IMG/VR virus record: IMGVR_UViG_3300044617_001156
Origin: a virus
Length of the DNA: 64,000 nucleotides
Direction: 5' to 3' (one strand)
Shown in pieces: positions 316 through 24,900 of the stretch. How positions within the stretch are numbered: the first letter of the stretch is position 1; each line of letters opens with the position of its first letter. The notes under the pieces were generated by a model. That model did no database searches and was not told where the DNA came from. It saw only the letters and a list, made by a program, of their open reading frames with translations. The position numbers and the translations under genes were made by a program.

Positions 316-379
316 AACTGGGCCCTTGAAAGTGTCCCTATAATGTAACCACCATTCCGTGTCGATCACGGCATATTAA

Positions 380-1126
380 ATGTTCAAAACTGACGGTTCC
401 GTTCATCATGGCGGAGTAAAAAATGAAAATCAAACTATTCAGATTCTCAATGAATTGAAAATCTATTCCAACATTGTTGAAAAACGTGGCGGAACTACTC
501 AAAAGGCAGATGCTGTCGCTGGTGATAAGAAAATCAGCATCAAACGGAAAGAAGGTATCGCAAATGGATCATTTGACTGGTTTAACACAAGCAAGTATAA
601 TGATGTCTTAGGTAACACTTTCGATACCTTTCTTTCAAACATGAAAGAGATGCGTTCCATGCCCAAAGATCTCATCAAAGATGATGAGTTCATCTTGAAA
701 GTGCGGGACAATTTCAATCAACTGTGTGAGTTGTCTTTGGACACTCTGAGTAGCGACCAAATTATTGATATTTTACGTCGCGGTCTGATTGATGCAAATG
801 ATGATTTTGATGTTGTAATTACCGACACTAAAACCAATACTCTGTATGTTTTTGGTGCTGATCAACATCCTGCTGTTGGTTATATCAATCAAGGATTTAC
901 TGCTGTTCTTCAAGGTAAGGGAAAATCATCCCGAAAAGTGTTGTTTTCTGATGGCATAAATCTTTATGACTGCGGTCTGCGTATTCGTGTTACCAGTAAC
1001 AATGGTATCAATGCTTTTCTTGGTTTAAGTAAAGCAAACAAGAACTCTCAGGTTGTAATCAAACTCCAACAAGATAACGTCAAACAACTACTCATCTCCA
1101 CCGAAGCGAAGAACTATGACTATTGA
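380..1126 (+). CDS. Putative PD-(D/E)xK restriction endonuclease
   Basis: KAD-x7-ISIK catalytic-like motif; overlaps the start of the downstream DNA methyltransferase. Confidence 0.6.
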   Translation: MFKTDGSVHHGGVKNENQTIQILNELKIYSNIVEKRGGTTQKADAVAGDKKISIKRKEGIANGSFDWFNTSKYNDVLGNTFDTFLSNMKEMRSMPKDLIKDDEFILKVRDNFNQLCELSLDTLSSDQIIDILRRGLIDANDDFDVVITDTKTNTLYVFGADQHPAVGYINQGFTAVLQGKGKSSRKVLFSDGINLYDCGLRIRVTSNNGINAFLGLSKANKNSQVVIKLQQDNVKQLLISTEAKNYDY

Positions 1127-2078
1127 AATCCTACAGCAATCCGCAGAGAAAATGACTGAAATTCAACAGTCATTCGATCTTATCTACATGGATCCTCCGT
1201 TTGGATTGCAAAGGGATTTTAAGATGTTAGAGCAAGATGGTGAAGAAAAAGGATTCTCTGATAACTGGGAGTCCTTTGATGATTATATTTTATGGTATGC
1301 AGATATCATAAACAAGGCATGGGACAAATTGAATAAGGATGGGTGGATTTATCTGCACAACAACTTCATTGGTAACGCACTTGTTTTATCTCATGTAGAT
1401 CGAAAAGTGCGTGATGCCTTTTATACAAACATTTCATGGAAACGTTCTGGTCCAAAGAATAACATCAAGAACGGATGGGGTAACATTGTAGATTCAATTA
1501 TGGTTCTCCGTAAGGGTAATCCATACTTTGAAGTTGAATATACAGACCTTGACTCAAAGTATGAGAAGAATAGCTTTAAGAACCAAGATGAAAAGGGATT
1601 CTATGCTCTCGCCAAAACTACAGGAGAAAAGAGTCGCCCTGGACGAATCTTTGACTATAAAGGTTACAAACCAGAGTATGGGTGGCGAGTAAGTGAAGAC
1701 ATGCTCAAAGAGATGGATGAGCATAACTTACTGCACTTTGGTAAGAATACAATCTACAAAAAGATTTACCTAGAAGATAGCAAAGGCGTCCCAGTTCAAA
1801 ATCTATGGGATGATGTGTATTTCATCTCTCGCAGTGAATCGAACAAGCGTAAGTATCCAACACAAAAACCACTCAAACTATTGGAGAGGATTATTAAGTC
1901 ATCTTGCCCTGAAAATGGATGGGTTTTTGATCCTTTTGCTGGGTCTGGAACTACAGCAATCGCATCGCAACTTCTTGGAAGAAACTGTATCACATGCGAC
2001 ATCAATCCACAGTCAATACAATTAGTGACTGAAGCAATCAAAGAAACAGAAAATCCTCTCATTTCTGCAATGAATTGA
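1116..2078 (+). CDS. Site-specific DNA methyltransferase, N6-adenine/N4-cytosine type, beta class
   Basis: N-terminal DLIYMDPPF catalytic motif; C-terminal YPTQKP and VFDPFAGSGTT SAM-binding motif. Confidence 0.93.
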   Translation: MTIEILQQSAEKMTEIQQSFDLIYMDPPFGLQRDFKMLEQDGEEKGFSDNWESFDDYILWYADIINKAWDKLNKDGWIYLHNNFIGNALVLSHVDRKVRDAFYTNISWKRSGPKNNIKNGWGNIVDSIMVLRKGNPYFEVEYTDLDSKYEKNSFKNQDEKGFYALAKTTGEKSRPGRIFDYKGYKPEYGWRVSEDMLKEMDEHNLLHFGKNTIYKKIYLEDSKGVPVQNLWDDVYFISRSESNKRKYPTQKPLKLLERIIKSSCPENGWVFDPFAGSGTTAIASQLLGRNCITCDINPQSIQLVTEAIKETENPLISAMN

Positions 2079-2124
2079 ACTGGGCCCCTGAAAGTGTACC
2101 AGTAGTGTAGTTCACACGGTCCGC

Positions 2125-2370
2125 ATGACCCGCACCCGTAAGCAAACCGCAAATGTTGCTGCTGAAGTGAAAGTGCCTGAGGTTCTCATCACTCGTCAGC
2201 AATACATTCAAGACATTAAGGTTCGCTGGGAAATCCATCAGTATGAAGTCAACAAACTTCGTGAAGATGTAACCAAGTTCAGTCAAACTGTTTCTCCTTA
2301 TGTGAAGCAAATGATTGACTACACGACCGAAAAGTATCAACAACTGTTCGCTCGTCGTCTGACTGCTTGA
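2125..2370 (+). CDS. Hypothetical early protein
   Basis: ORF between repeat copy 2 and a terminator. Confidence 0.8.
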   Translation: MTRTRKQTANVAAEVKVPEVLITRQQYIQDIKVRWEIHQYEVNKLREDVTKFSQTVSPYVKQMIDYTTEKYQQLFARRLTA

Positions 2371-2379
2371 TGATACACC

Positions 2380-2406
2380 AAGGCACCATCACTAGGTGCC
2401 TTTTTT
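2380..2406 (+). terminator. Rho-independent terminator
   Basis: AAGGCACC-atcacta-GGTGCCTT followed by a T run. Confidence 0.8.
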
Positions 2407-2446
2407 ATTGAAAATGTTAGTGGGCCCTGTAAAGTGTCCTAGTATT

Positions 2447-3343
2447 ATGAAGAACACCCATCTCAATCATCCCGAAGATCAGATTCTTACAGGTGATCTA
2501 TCTGTGCTGGATTGGATGTATGAATCTGATAGTTTCATCTCCACAAAAATTGATGGTGCTCCGGCTGTAGTGTTTGGAACTGACCCTGAGACTGGTAAGT
2601 TCTTCTGTGGGACAAAATCAGTTTTTAACAAGAAGAAAATCAAGGTAAATTACAGCATTGAAGACATTCTCCGTAATCACGGTAACACTCCTCGCGTTGC
2701 AGAGATTCTTATTGCCTGCTTCAACAATTTCCCCAGGATTGATAACATCATTCAAGGTGATTTCATCGGATACGGTGGAAACAGCACTTATCGCCCCAAC
2801 ACTATCACCTATCACTTTCCTAGTGTAGTCAAAGAAGCAATCATCTTTGCTCCTCATACGACCTATTCTGGTACAAATCTTCGTGAATGTGTTGCATCCT
2901 TTGGTGCATCAGTTCCTGAGTGTGAGAATGTGAAATGGGTGCAACCTGATGCATCTATCTGTCCTTATCGTGAGGATATTGAAGATGTGTGTAAGTTTGC
3001 AAAGCAAATGAGCACACTGTGTGAGTTCGTGAATGATAAGCAAGCAACAGAACTCAAGAAAATCATCAATTCTTACATCCGTGAGGGTAAGGAGGTTGAC
3101 GAACATGAAATTGCAGAAAATTATGATGTTGATATCAACCTGCTGCGACTTCACAAACTCGTTGCATCAATCAAGACCGATTTGTTCTTCTTCATCTCTG
3201 ATGACGATAGCATCTCCTGTGAGATTGATGGTAAAGAGTCTGCGCATGAAGGGTATGTAATGACGAATCGTTTTGGAACATACAAGATTGTTGACCGCAC
3301 TCAATTCAGCCGTGCTAACTTTACACTTCAAAAGAACTGGTAA
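2447..3343 (+). CDS. Phage protein with ligase/nucleotidyltransferase-like motifs (RNA-ligase-like fold)
   Basis: STKIDG (KxDG), IIQGD, HEGYV, YKIV; start reassigned to ATG 2447 (MKNTHLNHPED) at the end of repeat copy 3. Confidence 0.65.
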   Translation: MKNTHLNHPEDQILTGDLSVLDWMYESDSFISTKIDGAPAVVFGTDPETGKFFCGTKSVFNKKKIKVNYSIEDILRNHGNTPRVAEILIACFNNFPRIDNIIQGDFIGYGGNSTYRPNTITYHFPSVVKEAIIFAPHTTYSGTNLRECVASFGASVPECENVKWVQPDASICPYREDIEDVCKFAKQMSTLCEFVNDKQATELKKIINSYIREGKEVDEHEIAENYDVDINLLRLHKLVASIKTDLFFFISDDDSISCEIDGKESAHEGYVMTNRFGTYKIVDRTQFSRANFTLQKNW

Positions 3344-3376
3344 TGATTAGTGGGCCCTTGGAAGTGTCCTAGTAGT

Positions 3377-3535
3377 ATGAGAACCACACACCGATTCCAA
3401 AGTTTCAAAGAAGCACTCAACTTTCTGATGAGTGAGTTTCAAATGAGCAATCAGCAAGCAACTCACTTCATCTGGGACAATCAGTTCACTATGGGAACTG
3501 ACCGTGCTATTTGGATTACTGAACCTACCAACTGA
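3377..3535 (+). CDS. Small hypothetical protein
   Basis: ATG at the end of repeat copy 4; ORF track frame. Confidence 0.65.
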   Translation: MRTTHRFQSFKEALNFLMSEFQMSNQQATHFIWDNQFTMGTDRAIWITEPTN

Positions 3536-3537
3536 TT

Positions 3538-3891
3538 ATGACTACTACCATCACTGAATACGCTGCACAGAAAGATGCACAAAACACAATCTATCTTAAC
3601 ATTGTTAAGTATGGTCTGATGCTATGTGATGCTCTCGGTCACGATGCGCCTGATAATTACTTCTATGAACTGGATAGTTCTGGTCGTAAGTATCACAGAA
3701 TCTGGATGTATATTGGAGACCGTCGTGATAGTATTCATGCTTTCATTGATAAGCAAACTGGTTCAGTATTGAAACCTGCAAGTGTAAAAGCGCCAGCTAA
3801 GGGTGAGAGGTACAACCTCCTCTCTATTCCTTCCCGTGAGAAGTGTTTTGAAAGTGCTGATGCTTTTGGTGGTTATCTGTACGCACGATGA
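3538..3891 (+). CDS. Conserved phage hypothetical protein
   Basis: RKYHRI...SIHAFID...G.VLKPAS.KAPAKG.RYNL pattern, recalled as widespread among phage early proteins. Confidence 0.8.
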   Translation: MTTTITEYAAQKDAQNTIYLNIVKYGLMLCDALGHDAPDNYFYELDSSGRKYHRIWMYIGDRRDSIHAFIDKQTGSVLKPASVKAPAKGERYNLLSIPSREKCFESADAFGGYLYAR

Positions 3892-4151
3892 CTTACTCTA
3901 ACCTTTCAAAGATTCGTCCGAAACTGAGAACATCAGGTAATGTAACAGGTAACTTCGGCCGCCCAAAATCAAAAGCAGGTTCATCACTGAATGAGATTGG
4001 AATGAGTACTAAAGAAAGCATTAAATGTGCTACACAGGATGAGTATCTGAATCGTCTTTATTCTGCATTTGATAATACTGATGATGCAAAGTTAAAAAAG
4101 TTTCTGTATCAAGAGATTCGTAAGATTCTTATCACACAAGGAAAGTGGTGA
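3888..4151 (+). CDS. Hypothetical protein
   Basis: ATGA overlap with the upstream gene. Confidence 0.8.
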   Translation: MTYSNLSKIRPKLRTSGNVTGNFGRPKSKAGSSLNEIGMSTKESIKCATQDEYLNRLYSAFDNTDDAKLKKFLYQEIRKILITQGKW

Positions 4152-4184
4152 GAAATAGTGGGCCCTTGAAAGTGTCCTAGTAGT

Positions 4185-4433
4185 ATGAACAACACTACCG
4201 ACCGCAAGTTTCACAACATTTCCCTTGAAGATCGTGAAATGTTTGCTTACAACAACTATCAAGAGCGTAAGAAACAGCAACTCGCTGCAGTTGCACCTGA
4301 ACTGCGTATCAAATACTGCTTCGAGTTTCTGAAAGGTTACGTCGCTGAAGGTGATACTGAGATGGCAAAGCGTTGCTATGATGGTATTGCTAAGTACAGC
4401 GAAGTTCTTGACTATTCCGAAGCACACTTCTGA
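4185..4433 (+). CDS. Hypothetical protein
   Basis: ATG at the end of repeat copy 5. Confidence 0.75.
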   Translation: MNNTTDRKFHNISLEDREMFAYNNYQERKKQQLAAVAPELRIKYCFEFLKGYVAEGDTEMAKRCYDGIAKYSEVLDYSEAHF

Positions 4434-4439
4434 TTCACA

Positions 4440-4532
4440 ATGACTGGTGGCATTATCTTCCTGATCGCTTATGCAATGGGCGCAGGACATGTTTTTCTGA
4501 TTCGTTATCTCTCACGTAAAGGTATTATTTGA
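4440..4532 (+). CDS. 30-aa hydrophobic peptide MTGGIIFLIAYAMGAGHVFLIRYLSRKGII
   Basis: Hand-translated; fills the gap, one TM-like segment with a basic tail. Confidence 0.55.
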   Translation: MTGGIIFLIAYAMGAGHVFLIRYLSRKGII

Positions 4533-4534
4533 TT

Positions 4535-4678
4535 ATGAAATACGAAGTCACTTTATACGTTTCTGGACGTAACTTCAAGGACATTGTAATTGCTAATTCA
4601 CCAACAGATGCAAGAGTTACAGCTGAAGCACGCAATCCTACAGCACGTGTTGTAGCAGTCAACGGAACGTTTAAGTAA
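4535..4678 (+). CDS. 47-aa hypothetical protein MKYEVTLYVSG...ARNPTARVVAVNGTFK
   Basis: Hand-translated; stop 1 nt before repeat copy 6. Confidence 0.75.
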   Translation: MKYEVTLYVSGRNFKDIVIANSPTDARVTAEARNPTARVVAVNGTFK

Positions 4679-4723
4679 CTGGGCCCCCGAAACTGTACCA
4701 GTAGTAACACCACACATCAAACC

Positions 4724-4921
4724 ATGAACTACTACAAAATCACTGAAATTGACTTTGACTTTGGCGGTGAAGATATCACTCAAGAAGAGATTGATACTAT
4801 CGTCACTGAAACAAAAGGTTGTCTCTGGACTTCACCAACTGAAGAAGATCTAGCAGACATCATCTCAAACAACACTGGTTGGTGCATTAACTCTCTGTCC
4901 TATGATGTGATTGCTGCCTGA
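4724..4921 (+). CDS. Small acidic hypothetical protein
   Basis: ORF track; C/A-rich leader after repeat copy 6. Confidence 0.75.
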   Translation: MNYYKITEIDFDFGGEDITQEEIDTIVTETKGCLWTSPTEEDLADIISNNTGWCINSLSYDVIAA

Positions 4922-5061
4922 TGATTGAAACTGATTTCTTTATTCTCACTCATGATCAATACCATCAATTCAATTCTGAAGCATCAGAACTTGGTTTAAG
5001 TATTGATTATTATCTCAGTGAGTTTATGGACATTGATGGACCATGGGTCATCACTGATTAA
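4921..5061 (+). CDS. 46-aa acidic hypothetical protein MIETDFFILT...
   Basis: Hand-translated; TGATG coupling; stop just before repeat copy 7. Confidence 0.65.
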   Translation: MIETDFFILTHDQYHQFNSEASELGLSIDYYLSEFMDIDGPWVITD

Positions 5062-5114
5062 AACTGGGCCCCTGAAACTGTACCAGTAGTATAACCACTC
5101 ACCACTGAAACCAA

Positions 5115-5432
5115 ATGACCCGCCTGATTGAACGCCAAATGAATGAAGCAATCCTGAAAGAAAAGGATTGGAAAAAGGATAACACTGAAGTTATCAACTA
5201 CAGCAACTGTTCTGATGTGTTTCTGTATGGTAATCTGATTGCTCGCATTGGCGAAACCTGGTTAGAGTTGTTCGATGGAGGTTATCAATCAGTAACTACA
5301 AAGTCTCGGCTAAATGCTATTCTCGCTGCTCATGGTGCAGACAATGAGTATGTGTTTCAGAAGAAAGGTCAGTGGTTTGTTAACTACGAAGGCGGACCAA
5401 TCCCCTTCTTCTCCGGTATGCGCCTGAACTGA
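5115..5432 (+). CDS. Conserved phage hypothetical protein
   Basis: LYGNLIA...GGYQSVTTKSRLNAIL...QK...W pattern recalled from phage early proteins. Confidence 0.8.
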   Translation: MTRLIERQMNEAILKEKDWKKDNTEVINYSNCSDVFLYGNLIARIGETWLELFDGGYQSVTTKSRLNAILAAHGADNEYVFQKKGQWFVNYEGGPIPFFSGMRLN

Positions 5433-5491
5433 ATGTTGTTTAATCTAGTTCTGTTCTCATCCATCATTGTTCGCTATCACTTTCACCACTG

Positions 5492-5668
5492 ATGATTGAA
5501 CTCCTCATTGCATCAACATTCGCTACCGCTCTGTCTTCGACTATCATCGGACAATCACTCATTGGACCTAATCTTCTTCGGACTGATTATCTCACTGACC
5601 AAAATCAAATCATCACGATTCAAGAGACAATCACAGAACTCCCAGAAGACCAACCGTGTAACCTATGA
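5492..5668 (+). CDS. 58-aa hypothetical protein with hydrophobic N-terminus
   Basis: Hand-translated; coupled to the next ORF by ATGA. Confidence 0.6.
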   Translation: MIELLIASTFATALSSTIIGQSLIGPNLLRTDYLTDQNQIITIQETITELPEDQPCNL

Positions 5669-5790
5669 CTAAGTTTCTCATTGGAACAATCACAGGTATT
5701 ATACTCTCAACAGTAGGATTCCAAGGGTTAGCAAACCTAGGTAATCGTACTATCACAACCATCGAATCATTCGCTCAATCACAACAATGA
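5665..5790 (+). CDS. 41-aa membrane peptide MTKFLIGTITGIILSTVGFQGLANLG...
   Basis: Hand-translated; ATGA overlaps at both ends. Confidence 0.65.
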   Translation: MTKFLIGTITGIILSTVGFQGLANLGNRTITTIESFAQSQQ

Positions 5791-5975
5791 ACAACGATCA
5801 AAAGGATTCAATGCTTGCAAACATCCTAGAGCAAGTACAACAACAAATCGTTAATCTAGTAGAGAACGATCTAATCGAAGAGTCTTACTCTCTATACAAA
5901 GAATGGGAAGAACATTTCAACAATAATATCACTGAACTAGAAATCATTACTATCAATGATCTGACTGCTATTTGA
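5787..5975 (+). CDS. Small acidic hypothetical protein
   Basis: ORF track; ATGA coupling. Confidence 0.7.
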   Translation: MNNDQKDSMLANILEQVQQQIVNLVENDLIEESYSLYKEWEEHFNNNITELEIITINDLTAI

Positions 5976-6070
5976 TAGTAACAAGAGGAAGGGAGTTTGC
6001 CTCATCTAAGTAAACAAAGTGACTTCTGTAAAGTAGAGATAATTCCTATTCATTTGGTGATGTGGATTAT

Positions 6071-6101
6071 AGAGAGGGGAGTGGTGTCCTCTCTCTTTTT
6101 T
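6071..6101 (+). terminator. Rho-independent terminator
   Basis: AGAGAGGGGA-gtggtg-TCCTCTCTCT then a T run. Confidence 0.75.
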
Positions 6102-6176
6102 ATTGTCTAAAAACCTTGTTTTAATGCTTAAATGTTAGGAAATCAATAAAAAAAGGCTATTTTAAATATATCTGAG

Positions 6177-6219
6177 TTTTCAACAGCCTTGTGGAAAAGT
6201 GTGTGGAATATGTGGAAAA
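6177..6219. promoter_or_regulatory. Cluster of four DnaA-box-like 9-mers (cyanobacterial TTTTCCACA type)
   Basis: TTTTCAACA 6177-6185, TGTGGAAAA 6190-6198, TGTGGAATA 6202-6210, TGTGGAAAA 6211-6219; adjacent AT-rich tract at about 6097-6176. Confidence 0.55.
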
Positions 6220-6284
6220 ATACCCTTATGAAGTCTTATAATACCCTTTAAAGCCTCATAGACCTTGTGATCTTACGTTGCGTC

Positions 6285-6313
6285 AGCCTAACACATAAGT
6301 TCTCACACGTCAA
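6285..6313 (-). promoter_or_regulatory. sigma70-like promoter on the minus strand, facing the DnaA-box cluster
   Basis: TTGACG-17 nt-TAGGCT on the minus strand. Confidence 0.4.
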
Positions 6314-6410
6314 CCCCCACTTTCCCGGAATATCATAAAATCCCCACACAACTCCCAGAATACTCTGAGACCCCTCTAAAATCGCCTGTAAGGACACTAA
6401 ATACCAACAC

Positions 6411-6439
6411 TTGACGTATGTCTCATTATCCCTTATAAT
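6411..6439 (+). promoter_or_regulatory. sigma70-like early promoter
   Basis: TTGACG-17 nt-TATAAT. Confidence 0.85.
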
Positions 6440-6471
6440 TGCCTCATACAACACATTCAAGGAGAACACTT

Positions 6472-6645
6472 ATGTCGGTTGCCTACAGTCAAGCACAGAA
6501 GCAGCGTTATCGTATTACCCTTGACATTTCAGCATATCCTGATTTCGATCCACACAACATCAACTGGAATAAGTTATTTGAACTCGAAGGATCTGAGAAC
6601 TGTGAGGCATATGTAGAAGACCTAAGTCGTCCTGATAAGTGGTGA
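6472..6645 (+). CDS. Small hypothetical protein
   Basis: AAGGAGA Shine-Dalgarno before ATG 6472; promoter upstream and hairpin downstream. Confidence 0.8.
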   Translation: MSVAYSQAQKQRYRITLDISAYPDFDPHNINWNKLFELEGSENCEAYVEDLSRPDKW

Positions 6646-6671
6646 TATAAGAGCATACAATAAGACTCCTT

Positions 6672-6698
6672 AAGAGACTCCTATAAGGGGTCTTTTTT
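6672..6698 (+). terminator. Probable intrinsic terminator
   Basis: AAGAGACTCCT-ata-AGGGGTCTTTT plus T run. Confidence 0.6.
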
Positions 6699-6704
6699 AA
6701 TGGC

Positions 6705-6733
6705 TTGACATACCTTACAGATCCTTGTATAAT
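6705..6733 (+). promoter_or_regulatory. Perfect-consensus sigma70 promoter
   Basis: TTGACA-17 nt-TATAAT. Confidence 0.9.
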
Positions 6734-6843
6734 ATCTTTGTGGAGATTGATAAGTGCATTAAGAGCTTATACAATGAGCCTACCGAAGGTAATCACGAAC
6801 GTAGTGAGTGATTGAATTGGGCCCCGTAAAGTGTACCGGTAGT

Positions 6844-7113
6844 ATGACCACCACACTCACACCAATGACTAACACTCTCCAAGCAAAAGTACAGGACACC
6901 ACCTATAACGGTTGGACTAACTTCCAGACTTTCAATGTTGCACTCTGGATCAACAATGATGAGGGTCTATATGATATCGCCCGTGAGACAGGTTCCTATC
7001 AGGACTTCGTTGCATATATCAGTGAGTTCATGTTGCAAACTCCTGATGGTGTAAGGTTCAATGACCCCGCTGTGAATGTGATCGAACTGAATAGCGAAGT
7101 GTTCGATTTCTGA
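6844..7113 (+). CDS. Conserved phage hypothetical protein (TYNGWTN..T.NVALW pattern)
   Basis: ATG at the end of repeat copy 8 (alternative ATG at 6865). Confidence 0.8.
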   Translation: MTTTLTPMTNTLQAKVQDTTYNGWTNFQTFNVALWINNDEGLYDIARETGSYQDFVAYISEFMLQTPDGVRFNDPAVNVIELNSEVFDF

Positions 7114-7182
7114 TGATTAGTGGGCCACGTAAAGTGTCCTAGTAATGTAAGCACCCAGTTCACTCCTAACTCACTCTTACTC

Positions 7183-7383
7183 ATGTTCAAAAACGTCATC
7201 AATCAGGTCCGCACTTTTGGTTACACGATGAAGAATCCGATGCCCCGCAAAATCTTCTTCCTGTACCACTTTGCTCCCAAGCGTTATACTGAGTTCAAAG
7301 ACCTGATGAATACTCTGCACGCGGATTATCGCCAAGGTCTTATCACTGAGGAGCAGATTGATAGTGCACTCCTTGCCTTCTGA
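7183..7383 (+). CDS. Hypothetical protein
   Basis: ORF track frame; ATG after repeat copy 9. Confidence 0.65.
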   Translation: MFKNVINQVRTFGYTMKNPMPRKIFFLYHFAPKRYTEFKDLMNTLHADYRQGLITEEQIDSALLAF

Positions 7384-7909: not shown

Positions 7910-7949
7910 GTGCCCCTTGGTTGACACTGGGGGGCACTTATGTTAGACT
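7910..7949 (+). promoter_or_regulatory. sigma70-like promoter whose -35 box forms the loop of a GC-rich hairpin
   Basis: GTGCCCCTTGG-[TTGACA]-CTGGGGGGCAC; TTGACA-17 nt-TAGACT. Confidence 0.7.
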
Positions 7950-8558: not shown

Positions 8559-8587
8559 TTGACAAGGCATATATAGACTGATAAAAT
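8559..8587 (+). promoter_or_regulatory. sigma70-like promoter
   Basis: TTGACA-17 nt-TAAAAT. Confidence 0.7.
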
Positions 8588-8610: not shown

Positions 8611-9378
8611 ATGGCAAAAGGATTTACAGTAAAAGCAGCATCCCCTAAGGCATCAGAAGCTGATTGGGATTATGATGCTATCAAAGAACGAATGAGAGGT
8701 AAGAGTATTGTCTTCTGTCTACCAGGACGTGGATGTTCTTTTATTTTTCTCAAAGCATTCGTACAACTTTGCTTTGATATGGTACAAAATGGAATGAGTA
8801 TTCAGATTTCTCAGGATTACTCATCAATGGTAAACTTTGCACGTTGTAAAGTATTAGGTGCAAATGTTCTAAGGGGACCGAAGCAAATTCCCTGGGATGG
8901 TAAACTGCAATATGATTATCAACTTTGGATTGACTCGGATATTGTCTTCACCACAGAAAAGTTCTGGCAACTCTGTGATCTTGCTCTGAATGAAGAAGGA
9001 GAGGATAAAGAGGTTGTTGCTGGTTGGTATGCCACAGAAGATGGTCACACGACCTCAGTAGCACACTGGTTGGAAGAAGATGACTTCCGTAAGAATGGTG
9101 GAGTGATGAATCATGAAACCGTTGATTCTATTTCAAAGCGCAGAAAGCCTTTCACAGTTGACTACACTGGTTTTGGATGGGTACTGATTAAAAATGGTGT
9201 CTTCGAGAATCTTGAATACCCTTGGTTTGCTCCTAAGATGCAAGTCTTTGAATCTGGTGCAGTTCAGGATATGTGTGGTGAAGATGTTTCATTCTGTCTT
9301 GATGCAATTGAGAAAGGATTTAAGATCTGGTGCGACCCTCGTATTAGAGTTGGTCATGAAAAAACTCGTGTAATCTAA
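8611..9378 (+). CDS. GT-A fold (family 2-like) glycosyltransferase
   Basis: WIDSDIVF DxD motif, GFGWVLI, GEDVSFC, RVGHEK. Confidence 0.75.
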   Translation: MAKGFTVKAASPKASEADWDYDAIKERMRGKSIVFCLPGRGCSFIFLKAFVQLCFDMVQNGMSIQISQDYSSMVNFARCKVLGANVLRGPKQIPWDGKLQYDYQLWIDSDIVFTTEKFWQLCDLALNEEGEDKEVVAGWYATEDGHTTSVAHWLEEDDFRKNGGVMNHETVDSISKRRKPFTVDYTGFGWVLIKNGVFENLEYPWFAPKMQVFESGAVQDMCGEDVSFCLDAIEKGFKIWCDPRIRVGHEKTRVI

Positions 9379-12983: not shown

Positions 12984-15900
12984 ATGACCGAGAGCAGAAT
13001 CAAAATTAGTTCCATTGTTGAAAATCAACTTCCTGATTATGTAAAGGAAGAATTTCCGCTAGTTTCGGAATTTCTTTCGCAGTACTATCAAGCAATAGAA
13101 AATCAAGGAAGCACACTTGATATTCTACAGAATATTGATCGTTATGTAAAAGTTGATAACTTAACTAATCTAACTGATTCTACTCAGACAACATCTGATG
13201 TTTCGTTGTTTGATACGACAATTAATGTTGAAAGCACCTATGGATTTCCTGATTCATATGGTTTAATTATGATTGACAATGAAATTATTACATATAAAGG
13301 TAAAACCGCTACATCGTTTACTGAATGTGTAAGAGGATTTGTTGGAATTGAAGAATATTATAATAATGATCAATTAAAGTTTTCTGATACAAACGTAGAG
13401 ACGCATTCAAACGGATCTGTAGTTGAAAATTTAAGTATTCTTTTCCTAAAAGAGTTTTTTAATAAAGTTAAAACTCAGGTCACACCTGGATTTGAAGATC
13501 GATCTTTAAATTCCGAAATTAATCAAGGACTTTTTATTAAACAGTCTAACGATTTTTATTCGTCAAAAGGAACAGCACACTCCTTTGAAATTCTTTTTAG
13601 AGCTTTATATGGTAAGGATGTTGAAGTTATTCTTCCTAGGGATTTTCTCATCCAACCTTCGGATGCTCAATATAGAATTACAAAAGATCTTGTAGTTGAA
13701 GCGATTGAAGGCGATCCATCAGACCTAGTAAACCTGACATTATATCAAGATTCAATCTATAATATTCCCGAGTCTAGGGGTACAATATCAAATGTAGAGA
13801 AAATTATTCGTGGAGATAAGGAATATTACGTAATTAGTTTAGATTTTGGTTACGATAACTTAAATGAAACTGGTCTTACTCTTGGAGATTTTACTGTACA
13901 TCCAAGAACCAGAAACATAGTAGATATTGCTTCTGGTTCTGATACTCTTACTGTAGATTCTACTTTAGGATTTCCATCTTCTGGTGTTTTAGTAGTAAAT
14001 TTAGAAAATGGTACGCAGTTATCAGTTAACTATGAATCTAAATCATCGACACAGTTTCATGGTTGCATTGGAATAACACAAGATATTTCAAAAAATAGTG
14101 AATTAAACTTAGATATTTTTGCTTTTGGATATGCAGATATTGAACAAACACAAATTGTAAAAGTAAGAGTTACTGGTGTTCTTTCTAATGTATTGTTAGA
14201 TTCTCCCACCAAATATTATGATAAAGGAGATCTAATCAAGATTAGAACACTTGGCAAAGAGACTGATGATTTTAGAGCAAATAAGTGGTTATTTAATATT
14301 TCATCTACCCATAATATAAAATCAGTTGTTGAATTAGACTCATTAAATTTTAAATATCGTATTGATCTTTTTGATCAACATCTTTTTTATATCGGCGATT
14401 CAGTCACGATTATACCTCCACAAGCACAACCAGTTTCTGAAGTTAAAGGTGTTATCAGTTCAATAAAAAATTCCACTTCCATTATTGTATCTACTGAACA
14501 AAGGTTAATTTCTTTTGTACCATTTCAAATAAGAAAAAATATAGTTAATGTATTATCATCAAATAATTTAAGTTTAAACAAATATACAGCAAATGTTCAG
14601 AATACTTATTTGGATGGTATAAATTCTGTATATGTAACATCTCCATCTTTACCATATTATTTAAACAATTCTCTCATTATTAGAGATAAAATAGTTACTT
14701 TCTCCGGAACATTCTTCGGGGATACTCTTTCTATCCCTAATCATAAGTTCTATACTGGTGACAGAATTGTCTATAATCCAGATGATGCTAACAATAAATT
14801 AGACTTATCTTCCGGGAAATATTTTGTTAGAAGAGTTGATTTGAACACAATAAAACTAAGTAGAAGTCTTAGTGATCTTTTTAATGATAGTTATGTAAGT
14901 GTATCAGGTACTGTTACCAATAATGTTTTTTATTATGAACCCTTTACTTTTGAAAATTTAAGCGCAAAGACAGTACAGACCCAAAAATTAATTCGCCAAA
15001 TTGCAAATCCAGTAACTACAAATACTAGAACTATAACTCCAGCAGGATTTACTGGAATTTTTATTAATGGTGTTGAACTGTTAAACTATAAATCAAATGA
15101 TTATATTTACTATGGACCAATAACATCTGTTGATGTATTATCTGGCGGATTCAATTATGATGCCATAAATCCTCCATTAATGCAAGTTAGTGATTCAGTG
15201 GGTTCTGGTGCTACTGCTTATTGTATTATTAATGGATCATTATCCAGAATTGATGTTATTGATGGTGGAATAAACTATTTGGAAACTCCTAGAGTCATCA
15301 TAACTGGCGGAAATGGTTTTGGTGCTAGTGCTGTTGCAAATTTAGAGTCTTATGATTACTCAGTATCATTTAATTCTAATCAATCTGCTGGGTATGTAAA
15401 TTTAGCAAATAATACAATCGGATTTTCATCTTTCCACAAACTTAACAGTGGAGATGAGTTAATATACCAAACAAATCAACAGCAAGGTATTGGTGGAATT
15501 ACAACAAACTCATCTTATTTTGCATCAATAGTAGATGCGAGCACTATAAAATTACACACCAAATTAAGTGATGCTGTTACTGGAATCAATACGATAAACT
15601 TATCTTCCCCATACGGCGAAGGAGTTCATACTTTAAAATCAAAATTTAAAAAGAGAAAAATCAGATCTTTAACTGTAATTAATACAGGATCTAATTATAG
15701 AAACAGAAGATTGTCTGTTGATTCTGTGGGAATTAGCACTGCAAACAATTCTATCAATATTGCAAATCATAATTTTAATAATAAAGATGTAGTTGCATAT
15801 CAAACTACAGGTTCGGCAATAAATGGATTGAATACCTCTAAGTATTATTATGTAAGAAAAATTGATAATGATAATTTTAGATTATTTGATCAGTATACCA

Positions 15901-18900
15901 CTGATGATAAACAGTTAATAGATTTTTATTATGAAACGAATCAACCAGTAAATCTTACCAGTGTTGGTAGTGGACTTCATATTTTTAGAGATAAACCAAT
16001 ACAAGTTCAACTGATTGGATCTGTTGGAGTGACTACTTTCACAAACCAAACATTTGATGCTGAACTTCAACTCATTTTCCGTGGACCAGTTGAATCAGTA
16101 TTTGTAGAAGATGGTGGATCTGGTTATGGATCTGAAGAGATATTGAATTATAATAGACAACCTGAATTTATTTTAAAATCCGGAACAGGGGCTGAAGTAA
16201 GACCAGTAATATTAAATGGTTCTATTGCTGAAGTTTTTGTCGTAAGTTCCGGAACTGGATATAATTCTCCTCCGGATTTGTTTGTCGAAAGTCCTGGTGG
16301 ATATGGTGCTATTTTAACTCCAGTAGTTGATCAGGGACTTTTAATTGAAGTAAAAGTTATTTCTGGTGGAGTTGGATATGGGCAATCAACAACTACAATT
16401 GATGTTTTGTCTGCCGGCCAAGAGGCAAAATTCAATGCAAATATAAAATCCTGGAATGTCAATTTAGTAGAAAGAAATATCGATTCCGAAGAGATAAGAG
16501 ATGATGATGGTATTATTGCCGAATCCCTGAAAGAAGATTTTGGTCTTGAATATTCTCATGCATATGCTCCAAGGAATCTAAGAAGATCCGCATTTAGTGA
16601 AAAATTTGTAAGTGGCGAAGCAATTTATGTTCCAGACCTGAATATTCAAAATGGAAGAGAAACATTATCAGATGCTCACTCTCCTATTATTGGATGGGCA
16701 TATGATGGAAATCCAATTTATGGACCTTATGGATACTCAACTCCTTCTGGAGGTTCTCCAAAATTACTAAAATCTGGTTATTCAATTTCATTGCAAGACA
16801 ATCGTCCAAGTTTGAATCTTTATCCGGAAGGATTTTTTGTCGAAGACTATGAATATATTGGCGATGGAGATTTAGATCAATCAAACGGAAGATTCTGCAT
16901 AACACCAGAATATCCAAATGGTACTTATGCTTATTTTGCAACTGTATCTGATATAATCGAAACTGCGGGAATATTTGCAAATTATAGAAAACCAACATTC
17001 CCATATGCGATTGGAGATTACTATCATTCAACTGCCAATTCACTTAATTTTTCTCCTCTATCCAATCAAGATGATTTTGATCTTAATACAACTGGTTTGC
17101 TTAGAAATACAACTCCTTATTATTTGACTAGTGATAATAGTTCTTATGAATTTATAAAAAATCCAAATAAAATTAAAGAGCAAAATTCTAAAGTTACTAA
17201 TGTAAGTTCAGGTGCAGTAACTTCAATTGATATTATTAACTCCGGAGATGATTATAATGTAGGAGACTCAATTTTATTTAATAGTAGTGGAACTGGAGGA
17301 AGAGGAGCCAAAGCATATGTTTCTAGTATTGAAGGTAAGGAAATTGTAGGTATTTCAATTACAACAACCGAAATAGATAATGTTGAATTAATTGGAAATA
17401 TCGGCATCTCTTCTTCTCAGTTGGATTTAAAGAGTGGAGATTTTCTAACTATACAAGGAAAATTCCCGAATGATTTTAGTATATCTCAAAGAATTGATGT
17501 AATCGGTAATAAATTGATTCTTTCTTCTGGAATTGGATCTGCTTCTTATACCGGAATAGTCACTTACATGAGTGTCTATCCACCAATAAATGCCTCTGTA
17601 AATAATTTATTTTATCTTGGTAATGAAATAATTAAAATATTAGATACTGATTTCGCAAATTCAAGAGTTAGAATACTCAGAAATCAAAATGGAACAACAG
17701 GTGTATCTTCATATTCTCCTGGATATGCATTAACAGAGTCTTCTACTAAATTCATTTACAATTCTGCCGGTCTTGCAGTAACTTTCTTTGATAATAGAGA
17801 GTTATATTTTAATCCTGTAGAATCTGTTGGATTAGGAACTACGAGTGGTGTTGGAATTGGATTAACACTTTATTTCACAAATCCTGGCTCTGGTGGAACA
17901 TCTATATTTGTTCCAACGAGAACCATTTATATTCCCGGACACGAAATTCCAACTGGTACTATATTACTTTATCGTTCAAATAACGGTAGTCCATTATCAA
18001 TTTCGACAGATGGTATTAGTTCATTCAATTTAACTAATAATTCAATAGTATACTCTGCAAGAATATCTGAAGATTTAATCGGAATTTCTACAGTTCTCGT
18101 TGGACTAGGGACTACTGGAACTTTTGTTGGAGTTGGATCCACTAATGTGGGAACTTTATTATACTTCACAGGAATTGGAACAGGTGTTTATCATAGTTTG
18201 AAATTAAATCCAACAAAAACAGTTAAGGCAGATCTATCAAAAAATACAGTAAATGTCTCAACTGCAGAAACTCATGGAATGCTCATTGGAGAAAGTATTT
18301 CAATAACAGCATCTCCTCAATTATCCACAAGCGTATCTGTTTATTATAATGATTATAATAGAAGACTTTACATCAATCCACTTTCATTTGGTGCCGCAGA
18401 TGTTGATATCGTAAGCAAAACCATTACTTTAGAAAATCATAAGTTGGCAACTGGACAAAGTGTTATATTCAGACAAACTACTCCAGTTGGTGGATTAGTT
18501 GATAATAAAATTTATTATGTAATATATTACGGCAAAAATTCCATTAAACTTGCAGAATCAATTTATGATGCATCAATTGATAAAGTTTTAAACATAACTT
18601 CTACCGGATCAGGCACAATTTCTCCAATAAATCCGCAGATTTTTGTAACTAGAAATAATACTATTAATTTTGATTTATCAGATTCTTCTTTATCATTTAC
18701 AAATAATACTGTAGATTATTCTGCTTTTGATTTCAAGATTTATAAGAATCCTAATTTTACTGAAGAATTTAATAAAACATTAAATTCTTCTACATTCAAT
18801 GTAATTAAAACAGGAATAATTGGTATTGATACTAATGCATCAATATCTTTAACTCTCAATGACGAGTTTCCTGATAGACTTTATTATAGACTAGAACCAA

Positions 18901-21900
18901 AAAATGATGATCTTTTACCACAGTCAAAACAAGAAATTATATTTGATAACCAATTAGTTGGTGCAGGAGAAATTGTTTTTGTTAATAGTGAATTATCGGG
19001 TTCTATTGTAGTTTCTGGTGTAGGAAGTACAACGTTTGTCTATACAATTCCTTTTGCTCCAGATGAAAGTTCATATAACACATCTAATGGACTTTTTGAA
19101 TATGAAAGGTTTACTGGTAAAGGAAAAATAAAAACAACCACTATAGAATCTGGCGGATCTAAGTATAAATCATTGCCTTCAATATCTGAAGTATTATCAA
19201 CTCAGGGTGAAGATGGTTTATTATACTCTAATGGTGATAGTATTGGTTCTGTGAGTAATGTTGAAATTCAAGATATTGGATTCTCATATCCTTCAGATTT
19301 CACTCTTCGCCCATCAGCAAAACTTCCTGATATTCTAAAACTTTATACTCTTTCAATATTTGATAGAATTGGTATTTCTTCTCGCGGAGTTAATTATGTA
19401 ATACCACCAGATTTGGTAGTTATTGATGGAAAAACAAATCAACAATTAACAGATATAGATTTATCTTATGAACTCGGAGATAGTGAAGTTAAAATTAATA
19501 AAAATGTATCCGGAATTTATGATATAAATCCAATTGTTCTACCAGTAAATAATTCAAATGGTATTGGAATTAATTCGATTACTTATAATTCAACCACCAA
19601 AAATGTTACTGTATACTTAAAACCAAGTTTCAGTGATGTAGAATCTTTCCCATTTGCCGTTGGTGAAAGAATTCTTATTGAAGGTGTTGGCGTAGCATCA
19701 TCCATTTCCACAATTAAAGGATATAATTCAGAAAATTATAATTATTCTCTATTCACTATAACATCCACTGATCCTAATATTGGAGGATCTAATGGTTCCA
19801 TCACTTATAATTTATCAGAGTACCTTTCAACCGGAGAGTCTCCTGGTATTGTTAGTATCAATGGATTTGTAGTACCAGAGAGATACTTCCCTATTTTTAA
19901 TATCTCTCTGAAAAAATTATCATTTAGAACTAGTGAGATTATTTCTTCAAATTCTGCAAGTGGTATAGTACAACTGTGGGATTTTAGAAATAACAATCTA
20001 AAGGTTGCAACAAATAATGACTTCGTAGTTGGAGAAGTTATTATTGGCGAGTCTTCTGGGGCAAGTGCAGTAATTGATGCAGTTTATAGTTCTGATGCAT
20101 CTTATAATGTTGGATCTTCTTCCATTGTAAGAAATGGTTGGTTTAAGGAGACTGGTTTCTTAAACACAGATACTCAAAGAATTCAAGATAGCGATTATTA
20201 TCAGTATTTCTCATACTCACTAAAATCTGAAATTTCCTTTGATCAGTGGGAAGATGGTGTTAGCACTTTGAATCACACTGCGGGATTTAAAAAGTTTAGT
20301 GATCTTGTAATTAATTCATCTTCAGGATTTATTGGATTATCAACGACTCAGGATAAATCAGAATTTACTGGAATTGCTGATCTGTATAATGTTAAGAGCC
20401 TTCATTGCTTTGATGATTATGATTTGGTATCTGAAAATAATATTACGATAAGCAATAAGCAGTATTCAGATAGAATAAAATTTAATTCCAAAATTATCCA
20501 AGACTATATTGAATCTATCGGCAATAGAGTTTTAAAAATTGATGATATAAGTTCCCAGTTTAATAGTAATCCAAGATCAACTAGATTTAGTGAAGTTGAT
20601 TCATTTGACATTGATGAATATAGATCTAAAAAATATGTTATTTACATATCAGATAGAAGATTCCCGACTGAAAAAGAAACCCTTTTAGTCACTCTTCTTC
20701 ATGATAATAATATTGGTTATTTAAATCAATATGCTAGAGTTGAAACTGGAGAAGATCTAGGATATTTTGATTTCAGTGTTAGTGGAACTGAAGGAAGTCT
20801 ATTATTCTATCCAAATAAATTTAGTGTTAATAATTACAGTTTAGAATATACTTCTTTCGGAATTAAAGATTCCATAGCAGGAATAGGAACTCAAAACTTA
20901 GGCAATGTAGTAAAAATTCATTCACACACTTCCAATATTTCTGTTGGAAATACTACTACAACTGTTGTAGGAATTGCATCAACTTATAGATCTTCTAAAG
21001 TTTTAGTTCAAATTGGTGCAACAGACAAGTCTTACTTTGAATTTAATGAAATTACTTTATTGCATAATAATCAAGATGTTTTCTTTATTGATTATGGGCA
21101 ATTGACGACTGGAAACTTTAGTCCTTATTCTTCATCTGGAATAGGAACATATCACGCTTATTTAAGTGGGTCTAACTTAAATCTAGATTTTATATTGAAC
21201 AGTGCTTCATCAGTAGAATATAACATCAATTCAATTGTTGTATCTATAGCAAATACTTCCTCTACGGGAATCGGATCTACTGCAGTTGGCGGAAGTCTTC
21301 TAGATTCTAATTATGTTTCTATTGCTTCTTCAACATCACCAGTATCAACTAACATTGCTCAGCATAGTACAACTTATAATTCATCTTATTATGTTGTATG
21401 TGTAGAAGATACTACAAATAGTAATTACCAAATATCCGAAATTGTAGTTACTAATCATAATACAGATTCTACAATTACAGAATATGGAATTGTAGAATCT
21501 AATGGAATTCTAGGCGATTTTGATTCTAGTATTTCTGGAACAAATGTTTATTTGAACTTTACTCCAATCCCAAATATTCAATGTCAGATTAGAGTATTCA
21601 AGGTTCACTCTGGACTAGATGAGACTGAGGGTGTAATTAACTTCATTAATTCTGATATTGATTCTTCATATGGATTATATCAAGGAACTGATATTGATAT
21701 TAAGAGGGAATTTGATCTTACGCACAATCTTCTTCCTATCTTCCAGAAAGAATTCAATGCCTCTCAGACAAATATTGTTGATGTTACTAATGATTTAATT
21801 TACGTTCCTGGACATTATTTTGTAACTGGAGAAGAGGTTGAATATTCTTATCAAGGTGGTCCAATTGGAATTGCTACAACAACAATCACTGGAATTGGAA

Positions 21901-24900
21901 CAACAGATAAACTACCAAGTTCTGTTTATATTGTAAAAGTTGATGATCTGAATGTAAAGGTAAGTGCTTCTGCATCTGAAGCTTTACGTGCTGTTCCAAA
22001 TGTTTTGAATATTACAAGTGTTGGCATCGGCAGTACTCACTTATTTACTAGTAAAAATCAAAACGCAAAAGCATTAATTTTAATTGATAACGTAATTCAG
22101 TCACCAATTGTCGCTACTGCAATTACAACAACTCTTGCATCTAACGTTCAAGTGTTTGATGACTCAATATCATTCTCCGGAATTACTTCATTCTTCGGTG
22201 GAGATATGATTAAAATTGGTGACGAAATTATGAAAGTGACAGGTGTAGGCATTGGAAGTACCAATGTAGTATCTGTTGTCCGCCCTTGGATGGGAACTGG
22301 TATTGCAACTCATGCCATTGGAGCATTAATAACTAAAATTCAAGGCAATTATAATATTATTGATAATAGTATTAGTTTTTCGGCACCTCCATACGGCAAT
22401 GTTCCTATTGAAAATCCAGACAAATTTGACGAAACTGACTATACCGGAATTTCCACAAGTTCTACATTTGGTGGTAGAGTATTCTTAAGATCTGGAGTTG
22501 AAAATTCTATCAATGAAACCTACAGTAAAAATTATATTTTTGATGATATATCAGATAGATTTGATGGATTCACTTCTGAGTTTAGATTGACTTCGCAGAA
22601 GAATAATATTGCTGGGTTCTCTACAAGCAATTCGGTTCTGCTAATTAATAGTATCTTCCAACTACCTTCACGTCCAGGGGCTATTAGTGTAATTGGTGGA
22701 TACGATCTTTCTGAAACCAGTGGTATCAGTAGTGTTACTTTTGTAGGAACCGCAACTTCAAATACATCAGATATTAATGCATCCAATCTTCCTAGAGGAG
22801 GAATTATAGTTTCTGTTGGATCTACTAAGGGATTTGGATATCAACCATTAGTTTCTGCTGGTGGAACCGCAGTAGTTTCTATTGCAGGTACAATTCAATC
22901 CATTAGTATTGGAAACAGTGGTTCTGGATATAGAAGTGGTTATCAAGTTGTAAATGTTGGTGTCGGCACTTCAAGTCTATATGATCCAAATATCCAATTT
23001 ATTGGTACTGCAGCAGTAAGTGGTGGCCGCATTGTAAGTGTTGCTGTTACAAATCCAGGAACTGGATATACATCCACTAACCCACCATATGTATTCTTCG
23101 ATGCTCCACTTTCTTATAGTAATATTCCATTGATTTACAGTTCAGAGTCAAAATCTGGAGTGGGAACCGAAGCAGTTGTTGATATTGTCGTGGGACAAGG
23201 ATCAAGTGTAATTAGTTTTGAAATTAAGAATTACGGTTATGCATATCAACCAGGAGAAATTCTTACTGTACCAATTACTGGTGTTGTAGGAATTCCTACT
23301 AATTCAACATTAACTTTTGATGAATTCCAGATCAGTATTGAAAGAACTTATAATGATGAGTTTTCTGGATGGACTATTGGAGATCTTCAGGTATTAGATC
23401 CTATTGACTCTTTATTTGATGGTGAAAGAATAGAGTTTCCTATCAAGATCAATGGAAATCAAACTACTATTAGATCAAAAATTGGATCAAATATTGATGT
23501 GGAATCAACATTATTGATCTTTATCAATGATGTTCTGCAAGTTCCAGGAGAAAGTTATATTTTCAAAGGAGGAAGTATAATTACATTCACAGAACCACCT
23601 AAGGAAACTGATACATCAAAACTATTATTTTATAGGGGAACTGGTGATGTTGATACTAGTTTTACTGATATTCTAGAAACAGTTAAACCAGGAGATACTC
23701 TTCAGATTAATTCTGACGATTCATTATACAAACAAACAAAGAGATCTGTAAATGAAATTGTATCTTCAGACATCGTAAGAACAAATGTATATTCTGGAAC
23801 TGGTATTTCTAATGATGTTAATTTACTGAGACCGGTGACTTGGTGTAAGCAAATGACTGATCTTGTAATTGATGAGGTCAGTGTGACTAAAGATAGAGTT
23901 CAATATGAACCTTATATTTACCCAGTAACCAATATCATACAAAATGTCACATCATCTTCAACTGAAATATTTGTAGAAAGCGTCAAAACTTTCTTTGATA
24001 GTGCTGATGAATATATTCAAAATGGAACTGCAGAAAAACCTCAGAAAAAGGTCTTAATTGTATCTCAGGATGAACTTGTTGGTGCAGCTGCATCTGCCGT
24101 TGTTTCGGTTGGTGGATCAATAACATCAATTAGCATCATTGGTGGTGGTGTTGGATATACTACTGCACCATCAGTTTCTATCTCATCTCCTGTTGGAATC
24201 GGGACAACTTTTGCAACTGCTACTGCATCAATTACTGCAGGTGTAGTTACTAGCATTACCGTATCTTATTCTGGTTATGGATATACTTCAACTAATCCAC
24301 CTCAAGTTCTAATTGAATCACCAATACCAAAATATGAAGAGATAAGAGATGTAAGTTATAGTGGAGATTTTGGAATTATAACAGGTATTTCTACAGTTAC
24401 AACAGGAATTGCTTCAACGGGCATTACATTTGACTTGTTTGTTCCTCGGAATTCTTATCTAAGAGATCTTTCTATTAACCAAGTTGGTGTTGCAACTACT
24501 GGTATTAGTGGAATTCAAACTGGTTATTATTTTATTATTGATAATTCCAATGTCGGAAACGGAGTAACTTCACTTAACAGTGGTGGATCTGTAGTTGGTC
24601 TTGGATCAACATACCTAGATAACATTTACCAAGCAGTTGCAGTTTCAATTGCCCAGACTAGTGTTCCTGGCGTAGGAGTTACTTATGTGACTCGAGTCAC
24701 TGTAAGTGTTAGAAATTACAATGGATTAACTGGAATTGGACGTAGTTCTTATTTTGGAAATTATTCCTGGGGTAGATTATCAAATCTCACTAGAACTGAA
24801 CCAAACTCCTTTGGAATTTATAACAATGGTATTGCTGGTATTTCAACATCACCTACTGTAAGAAGATTCAATAAACTAAAGTATTCAAATTACACCTCAT

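Follow-up and report, generated by a model that had tools for sequence, protein, structure and literature searches.

A repeat array in the small-gene region of a T4-like cyanophage

We analyzed a 64,000-nucleotide stretch of viral DNA (IMG/VR record IMGVR_UViG_3300044617_001156; hereafter 'the window'), in which positions 319-7148 are occupied by an array of short repeats, each 28 bp long and referred to here as the element. The window belongs to a T4-like cyanophage of the Kyanoviridae. On the 3' side of the array it encodes gp25, gp6, a 3972-aa wedge protein, gp8, neck and sheath proteins, terminase, portal, protease, scaffold, gp23, UvsW and a gp46-like ATPase. Its major capsid protein shares 83% identity with the corresponding proteins of P-TIM68 and S-B05, and no close relative at the DNA level was found among cultured phages. 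The array coincides with a region of small genes 5' of the baseplate genes, the positional counterpart of which in phage Syn9 is gp55-gp98, just upstream of gp25. Two of the array genes are homologues of Syn9 gp69 and gp90, and small open reading frames (ORFs) from the cyanophage-only families DUF6267, DUF7717, Kyano_Gp96 and DUF7249 occur within it.

A preliminary description of the window had listed nine copies of the element, starting at 319, 2081, 2421, 3351, 4159, 4680, 5065, 6818 and 7121. We scanned the window with the pattern TGGGCC-N4-RAASTGTMC-N3-TADTRW and recovered all nine as exact matches on the plus strand, compared with no match in 100 shuffled sequences, which served as the chance level. 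A looser pattern allowing one mismatch returned the same nine sites only, so that no further copy exists in the 64 kb. The copies are intergenic and lie at intervals of 303-1762 bp, and seven of them begin 1-7 nt past the stop of the preceding ORF (ORF ends at 315, 2078, 3343, 4151, 4678, 5061 and 7113); both of these details had been described correctly.

In four copies, namely those starting at 2421, 3351, 4159 and 6818, the ATG of the downstream ORF (at 2447, 3377, 4185 and 6844, respectively) shares its first two bases with the end of the repeat. The first of these, copy 3 (2421-2448), lies 18 nt past an intrinsic terminator on the plus strand (2380-2402) and opens ORF 2447-3343, which encodes the DUF6267 protein; this terminator-repeat-ATG junction is kept in relatives. 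Copy 4 (3351-3378) is followed by ORFs 3377-3535, 3538-3891 (DUF7717, similar to Syn9 gp69) and 3888-4151. Copy 5 (4159-4186), which has the full consensus, is followed by ORFs 4185-4433, 4440-4532 and 4535-4678. Copy 8 (6818-6845), also with the full consensus, opens ORF 6844-7113 (DUF7249), and a canonical promoter at 6705-6733 lies 85 nt upstream of it. The start codon stands further downstream in the other five copies. Copy 1 (319-346), in which the -10-like box reads TATAAT, is followed by a 33-nt CA-rich leader and then by ORFs 380-1126 and 1116-2078. The ATG lies 16 nt past the end of both copy 2 (2081-2108; ORF 2125-2370, 81 aa, followed by the terminator mentioned above) and copy 6 (4680-4707; ORFs 4724-4921 and 4921-5061). 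It lies 22 nt past the end of copy 7 (5065-5092), which is followed by ORF 5115-5432 (Kyano_Gp96, the Syn9 gp90 homologue) and three small ORFs extending to 5975, and 34 nt past the end of copy 9 (7121-7148), a TGGGCCA variant followed by ORF 7183-7383.

As a separate observation, the tetranucleotide GGCC is approximately 3-fold under-represented over positions 1-64000, with 22 occurrences against approximately 66 expected from base composition. The repeat copies hold nine of these 22 occurrences and all eight occurrences of GGGCCC. Given that GGCC is rare and that GGGCCC is confined to the copies, this suggests that a GGCC-type restriction site is avoided in the genome and is retained only where the element requires GGCC.

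Distribution of the element in phages and cellular genomes

A scan of IMG/VR for the element found at least 114 stretches, many of them with 5-9 copies, and the comparisons described below use 114 stretches together with the window. Under a relaxed consensus, defined as a match at 16 or more of the 21 specified positions, the matches listed for this set comprise 593 sites, every one of them on the gene strand, and no locus carries copies on both strands.

The element is bipartite. It consists of a constant 3' half, AAAGTGTMC-N3-TAGT-R-T, and a lineage-specific 5' half of 7 nt, which reads TGGGCCC in the window; all nine window copies fit the constant half and a genome-uniform 7-nt block. A second scan, using the 3' half and ATG only, found 97 further stretches in which the same constant half stands behind other 7-nt blocks. 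At least 19 different 5' halves occur, such as ACTCACC, GGGGACG, AGTAACC and TGGATCC, and the 5' half is uniform within a contig, where the commonest type accounts on average for a share of 0.86, compared with 0.32 after shuffling. Among cultured phages, SynMITS9220M01 carries at least 10 copies of the ACTCACC type, and several of its annotated coding sequences begin directly after TAGT. The cultured phage S-SM2 has the constant half with a GGGGTCG-type 5' half.

The constant half is absent from Syn9, P-TIM68, S-B05, S-SZBM1 and DSL-LC02, the only hit in Syn9 being one chance-level match. At orthologous genes, that is, the homologues of Syn9 gp69 and gp90, each lineage has its own repeated element upstream, and the one at the Syn9 genes is a different repeat (...GTGTATTCTATAAGAGTCAAAGG...). 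We also observed that Syn9 and the lake phage DSL-LC02 carry different repeats (...TCTATAAGAGTCAAAGG... and ...CTTAAAGAGTCAAAGAA...) approximately 17 nt before the ATG of orthologues of element-headed genes; these other repeats were found in L001 at 46339, 47252 and 48608, in L122 at Syn9 positions 51050 and 53046, and in L243 at approximately 10660 and 11960. A deeper 'GTGTCCAC box' common to the window and the Syn9-type elements was also considered and was rejected, given that its counts equaled the control counts.

In cellular genomes, the core was seen, among the matches listed (120 stretches), only as scattered single matches in diverse taxa and on both strands, and never as arrays. These matches are consistent with the chance number estimated for approximately 15 specified bases in 596 Gb.

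Anatomy of the element

Anatomy statistics were calculated from 281-415 unique copies, depending on the measure. Positions T23 and A24 are each present in 100% of copies and T28 in 94%, which gives the pattern TAnnnT, and T26 is present in 98-100%. A purine invariably occupies position 27, even where the copy has no ATG (A 50%, G 49%). The sequence logo reaches past the 28 bp: an A/T-rich stretch, usually containing the stop codon of the upstream gene, is followed by A-C and then by the element itself.

An ATG occupies positions 27-29 in 56-62% of the unique copies. Of 224 such ATGs, 215 begin an ORF of 28 codons or more, compared with 4% for the other two frames, and the built-in ATG is therefore a genuine start codon. 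For annotators, the element offers a simple means of locating the true starts of many tiny genes. In copies without a built-in ATG, the start codon lies a median of 18 nt past the element (interquartile range, 15-22 nt), and almost never at a distance of 0-10 nt. Whether coding or not, the 20-30 nt past the element are CA-rich and G-poor. Just before the built-in ATG, stop codons stand in all three frames: TGA near -9 and at positions 9-11, the TGA within ATGA, and TAG-TAG at positions 20-25.

We then looked for secondary structure. Distant positions of the copies showed no mutual information indicating a helix. The nine window copies with their flanks formed no hairpin, with DNA folds of -0.8 to -4.8 kcal/mol and z-scores of -0.5 to +1.4 relative to shuffled sequences, and the element had no match in Rfam. 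A terminator-like hairpin with a T-run was found within 80 nt upstream of 18 of 415 unique copies (4%), compared with 16 of 600 random positions, and in the window only copy 3 has a terminator upstream. Fourteen unique copies, representing approximately six separate junctions and including window positions 2380-2449, have a terminator directly 5' of a copy with a built-in ATG.

A probable promoter-type expression signal

T4-like cyanophages are among the most abundant viruses of the sea and of lakes, and the switching-on of their first genes is only partly understood. To relate the element to genes, plus-strand ORFs were called in the 114 related stretches and the window and were clustered into 445 families. 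The linkage of the element to families is bimodal: it precedes 22 of 96 families in at least 70% of cases, and it almost never precedes 62 of the 96. Because the element is co-oriented, intergenic, confined to the small-gene region and bound to families in this way, we consider it an expression signal of genes rather than a positional recombination site. In this respect, the earlier proposal is supported: the repeats act as a signal in front of gene groups, all point the same way, and occupy a hyperplastic region of a T4-type phage. The element is real, widespread, bipartite and promoter-like, and it relates to the known repeated, phage-specific regulatory cassettes of T4-type hyperplastic regions. 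Judging from these sequence patterns, the element is probably, although far from certainly, a lineage-specific promoter-type expression signal of T4-like cyanophages that heads small accessory gene groups. Furthermore, a 5' half that is uniform within a genome and specific to a lineage suggests either a co-evolving specificity factor or a homogenization of the copies by recombination; the combination of a constant core with a lineage-specific 'address' points to a specificity factor.

In the mechanism that we propose, the element would stand ahead of small genes, one to four at a time, in the hyperplastic region 5' of the baseplate module, and transcription may begin at positions 25-27, on its 3' edge, a placement that we put forward tentatively. 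Genes with an ATG at 27-29 would then yield leaderless or nearly leaderless mRNAs, and the other genes would receive a CA-rich leader of approximately 20 nt without a Shine-Dalgarno sequence. Such a start would account for the exact register of the built-in ATG, for the invariant T26/R27 and for the gap between 0-nt and approximately 20-nt leaders. Moreover, since a terminator directly precedes a copy with a built-in ATG at approximately six junctions (the 14 unique copies mentioned above), the mRNA should start inside the element there. A start at this position calls for a non-sigma70 mode of recognition. The start codon at a set place within the element suggests that T4-like cyanophages may rely on leaderless translation as a main route for expressing their early genes, and the interest of the element centers on which factor reads it and on whether leaderless early mRNAs result.

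An extended form of this scheme, which we regard as rather doubtful, would make the element a non-sigma70 promoter spanning approximately -26 to +4, with a start no more than 2 bases from the start codon. Across a large clade of T4-like cyanophages, the majority of accessory genes in the early region would then yield leaderless mRNAs. The promoter would be read by a specificity factor or polymerase that is injected or made very early, and the DNA-reading part of this protein would co-evolve with the 7-nt half, just as T7-group polymerases match their promoters. The element resembles promoters of the T7/SP6 group in that it is a contiguous conserved block of approximately 25 bp, ending at a purine after T, with phage-specific and constant parts. 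In addition, CTA-type copies and the SP6 consensus agree at 15 of 26 positions when SP6 +1 is placed at element position 25, a score reached by 11 of 5000 shuffles in what is a post hoc comparison. However, TAG-type copies, which are the majority here, do not match the SP6 promoter. The five cultured Kyanoviridae searched gave no T7-type RNA polymerase (family PF00940), in a search whose control was also silent. The possibility that the 3972-aa baseplate protein conceals a virion RNA polymerase was considered separately, and neither Pfam nor the PDB sequence search bore it out.

The promoter could also be arranged differently. T4 middle promoters combine a MotA box near -30 with a sigma70 -10 box and are read through sigma appropriation by AsiA and MotA. 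By analogy, TAGTAT might be a sigma70 -10 box, the 5' half an activator box near -30 and position 35 the approximate start, an arrangement that we consider possible and only slightly less likely than a start at positions 25-27. It would account for the invariant TAnnnT, and the lineage-specific half would fall at approximately -34 to -28, the place taken by the MotA box instead of a -35 box. On the other hand, the sequence of the box is unrelated to that of T4, the conserved AAAGTGTMC between the box and the -10 has no T4 counterpart, and the built-in ATG of the element would precede the start site. No member of the MotA or AsiA families was found among the scanned window ORFs.

Several points weigh against a promoter. 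A sigma70 scan of the window lists none of the nine copies, and TGGGCC agrees with TTGACA at only three of six positions; the absence of a TTGACA -35 box had already been noticed in the preliminary description. If transcription starts at positions 25-27, no sigma70-type -10 box is left at the proper distance. If it starts near position 35 instead, the start would lie approximately 8 nt 3' of the built-in ATG; since the ATG would then be outside the transcript of its own copy, such genes would need read-through from upstream. The search that gave no T7-type polymerase, with its silent control, belongs here as well. In addition, most copies stand inside co-directional gene runs without terminators, which leaves room for a role in the RNA, and the timing that we take to be early is read from genome position only.

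The location of most copies within such gene runs bears on an explanation at the RNA level, in which the element would act within long polycistronic messages as a translation start region without a Shine-Dalgarno sequence, as an operator for a translational repressor such as RegA, or as a site of processing from which downstream cistrons emerge with AUG at or near the 5' end. It would fit with the start codon being part of the element in more than half of the copies, with the stops in all three frames before the built-in ATG, with a region that is less structured than shuffled sequences and is followed by the CA-rich, G-poor stretch, and with the 96% of copies that have no terminator upstream. 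However, the ATG lies approximately 18 nt further 3' in 38-44% of the copies, so that the element is not a fixed ribosome site, and 26 conserved nucleotides with a lineage-specific 5' half exceed the needs of known ribosome sites. Some copies with a built-in ATG directly follow a terminator, and neither covariation nor a helix nor an Rfam match was found. Taking these points together, we consider an action in the RNA unlikely, and we retain the promoter-type signal as the preferred interpretation.

A comparable element may already be known from another lineage. A novel element that is not host-like reportedly controls early genes in Syn9 and P-TIM40, and it is said to be abundant and conserved in T4-like cyanophages. 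No description of its published motif (Doron et al. 2016) was found in the literature that we searched, including several citing papers. Like that element, the one in the window is a non-host-like repeat before early-region genes, and the array corresponds to the Syn9 region gp55-gp98, 5' of gp25. Unlike it, the window element is not found in Syn9, from which the published element was derived and which has one chance-level match to the constant half and another repeat at the orthologous genes. Since Syn9 lacks the constant half, the two are unlikely to be identical in sequence; the window element may be the functional counterpart of the published one.

Gene exchange at the element

The preliminary description had regarded each repeat with its downstream genes as an exchangeable unit of site plus cargo, and had compared the array with integrons and with the promoter-early stem-loops (PeSLs) of T4-type phages. 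To investigate this, 235 clean indels between relatives were classed according to whether the element stands at their edges. Units extending from one motif to the next accounted for 49 of the 235 indels, against 24.4 expected (binomial p ~2e-6, although the events are not independent). In contrast, 84 of the 235 (36%) lacked the element at both edges, and 64% carried it at one edge or both, compared with 60% by chance. The location of breakpoints among relatives, which had been fixed beforehand as the check on this proposal, thus gave a divided answer: whole units are exchanged twice as often as expected, and breakpoints are not confined to the element.

Junctions between genes gave a similar picture. 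Among pairs with 80-95% protein identity, junctions with the element in both genomes were broken in 73% of cases, compared with 49% for junctions without it; the corresponding values were 81% and 67% below 80% identity, and 13% and 11% at 95% identity or above. When instability was calculated for each family, the medians were 0.81 and 0.70, a difference that was not significant (p = 0.088). Anchor families follow a conserved order in the relatives, and what lies between them varies in presence or absence. In the closest relative (L029), the element is involved in two of the five differences from the window. This relative lacks the unit formed by copy 5 and its first gene, and it has an extra unit between two copies at the site of copy 8; the three other differences lie at plain gene junctions or in non-coding DNA. 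The repeats therefore show a mild preference for exchange and are not delimiters of an exchange system. These statistics temper the 'cassette' picture, in that the whole region is plastic and the repeats add only a mild preference as seams. Exchange at the repeats plausibly proceeds through T4-type homologous recombination: many near-identical copies, together with T4-type recombination genes, could cause whole motif-to-motif units to be lost or gained approximately twice as often as by chance, as a secondary effect of the element.

We also considered whether recombination could be the main role of the element. PeSLs, in which a terminator stem-loop is fused to a sigma70-type early promoter, have been reported from the T4-type phages RB49/phi1, T4/PST and KVP40/nt-1 (Arbiol et al. 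2010, PMC2839356; Comeau et al. 2014, PMC4122927), and they are the closest described concept to the element. Both consist of short regulatory sequences that recur in a single orientation among the small genes of T4-type hyperplastic regions, and in both cases whole copy-to-copy units are gained or lost above chance. If the copies served mainly as seams of this type, that is, as short homologies for T4-type recombination that swaps gene modules, then the twofold excess of motif-to-motif indels, the more frequent breakage of element-bearing junctions at 80-95% identity, the extra unit flanked by two copies in the closest relative and the presence of UvsW and a gp46-like protein would all be expected. 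However, more than a third of the indels involve no element, the share with at least one element edge is close to chance, the per-family test is not significant, anchor gene order is conserved and families retain their own copy. Moreover, 96% of the copies lack the stem-loop by which PeSLs are defined, and the element has no TTGACA-type -35 box, often contains a start codon and is bypassed by most indels in relatives. A seam function as the main role is thus improbable. Of the PeSL analogy, the location and the mild seam effect stand, whereas the stem-loop (4% of copies) and the sigma70-type promoter (none of nine) do not.

The analogy with integrons fared worse. Like attC sites, the repeats lie in one orientation and bound short gene groups, and some units, such as family 39 with its copy, occur at differing places in relatives. 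However, the copies have no inverted repeat or hairpin, and no integrase, transposase or other recombinase was found among the scanned window ORFs; in agreement with the preliminary description, Pfam scans of 37 window ORFs showed only T4-type structural, replication and accessory proteins. Furthermore, the element shares bases with start codons and goes with particular gene families, most indels ignore it, anchor order is conserved, and in the cellular matches listed the core is single and never in arrays. Integron cassettes are promoterless, unlike the genes here, which the element probably serves as an expression signal. An integron-like or other site-specific cassette system with a dedicated recombinase is therefore extremely improbable, and the comparison with integrons is not upheld.

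Other genes and signals in and near the array

Four canonical promoters, with 11-12 of 12 consensus matches each, were found by the sigma70 scan. These are a host-type promoter on the plus strand at 6411-6439 (TTGACG-17-TATAAT), in front of ORF 6472-6645 (57 aa, phrog_12516); a perfect promoter at 6705-6733 (TTGACA-17-TATAAT, 12 of 12); and two more at 7921-7949 and 8559-8587. Because they are interspersed with the repeat array, two promoter classes coexist in this region. The gene of the conserved 57-aa protein (6472-6645) is followed by a hairpin and T-run at approximately 6672-6700, which was read directly from the sequence and is absent from the list of the sigma70/terminator scan. Positions 5976-6110 are non-coding and end in a strong terminator (6071-6096), the loop of which, GTGGTG, is the complement of the CACCAC tail found after many copies. 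This stretch had no Rfam match and a fold z-score of -1.2; it could encode a small RNA that acts on CACCAC-tailed leaders.

Two of the functions previously suggested for the cargo genes were retained only in part. For a restriction-modification pair behind copy 1, the methyltransferase is clear (1116-2078; PF01555, N6/N4 DNA methyltransferase), whereas its 248-aa neighbor has no family above threshold. The ORF of this neighbor (380-1126) overlaps the methyltransferase start by 11 nt and shows a weak DUF6323 match only, and a PDB sequence search with the protein gave no match; it is a possible restriction partner of the methyltransferase. For a ligase-like gene behind copy 3 (2447-3343), the KIDG motif is visible in the sequence and resembles motif I (KxDG) of nucleotidyl transferases and ligases, whereas the family is DUF6267, for which the PDB sequence search found no solved relative. 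The Pfam DUF6267 profile starts at residue 3 of the ORF opened by the ATG of copy 3.

Finally, two proteins 3' of the array were examined. The 3972-aa virion/baseplate protein (12984-24902) contains a YHYH domain at residues 1229-1321 and otherwise has a weak wedge match only, with no solved relative by sequence. A 255-aa protein (8611-9378), which has no Pfam family and no match in the PDB sequence search, is glycosyltransferase-like according to PHROG 34859 and Atlas. It is 88.6% identical to SynMITS9220M01_076, compared with 79.6% for the capsid protein.

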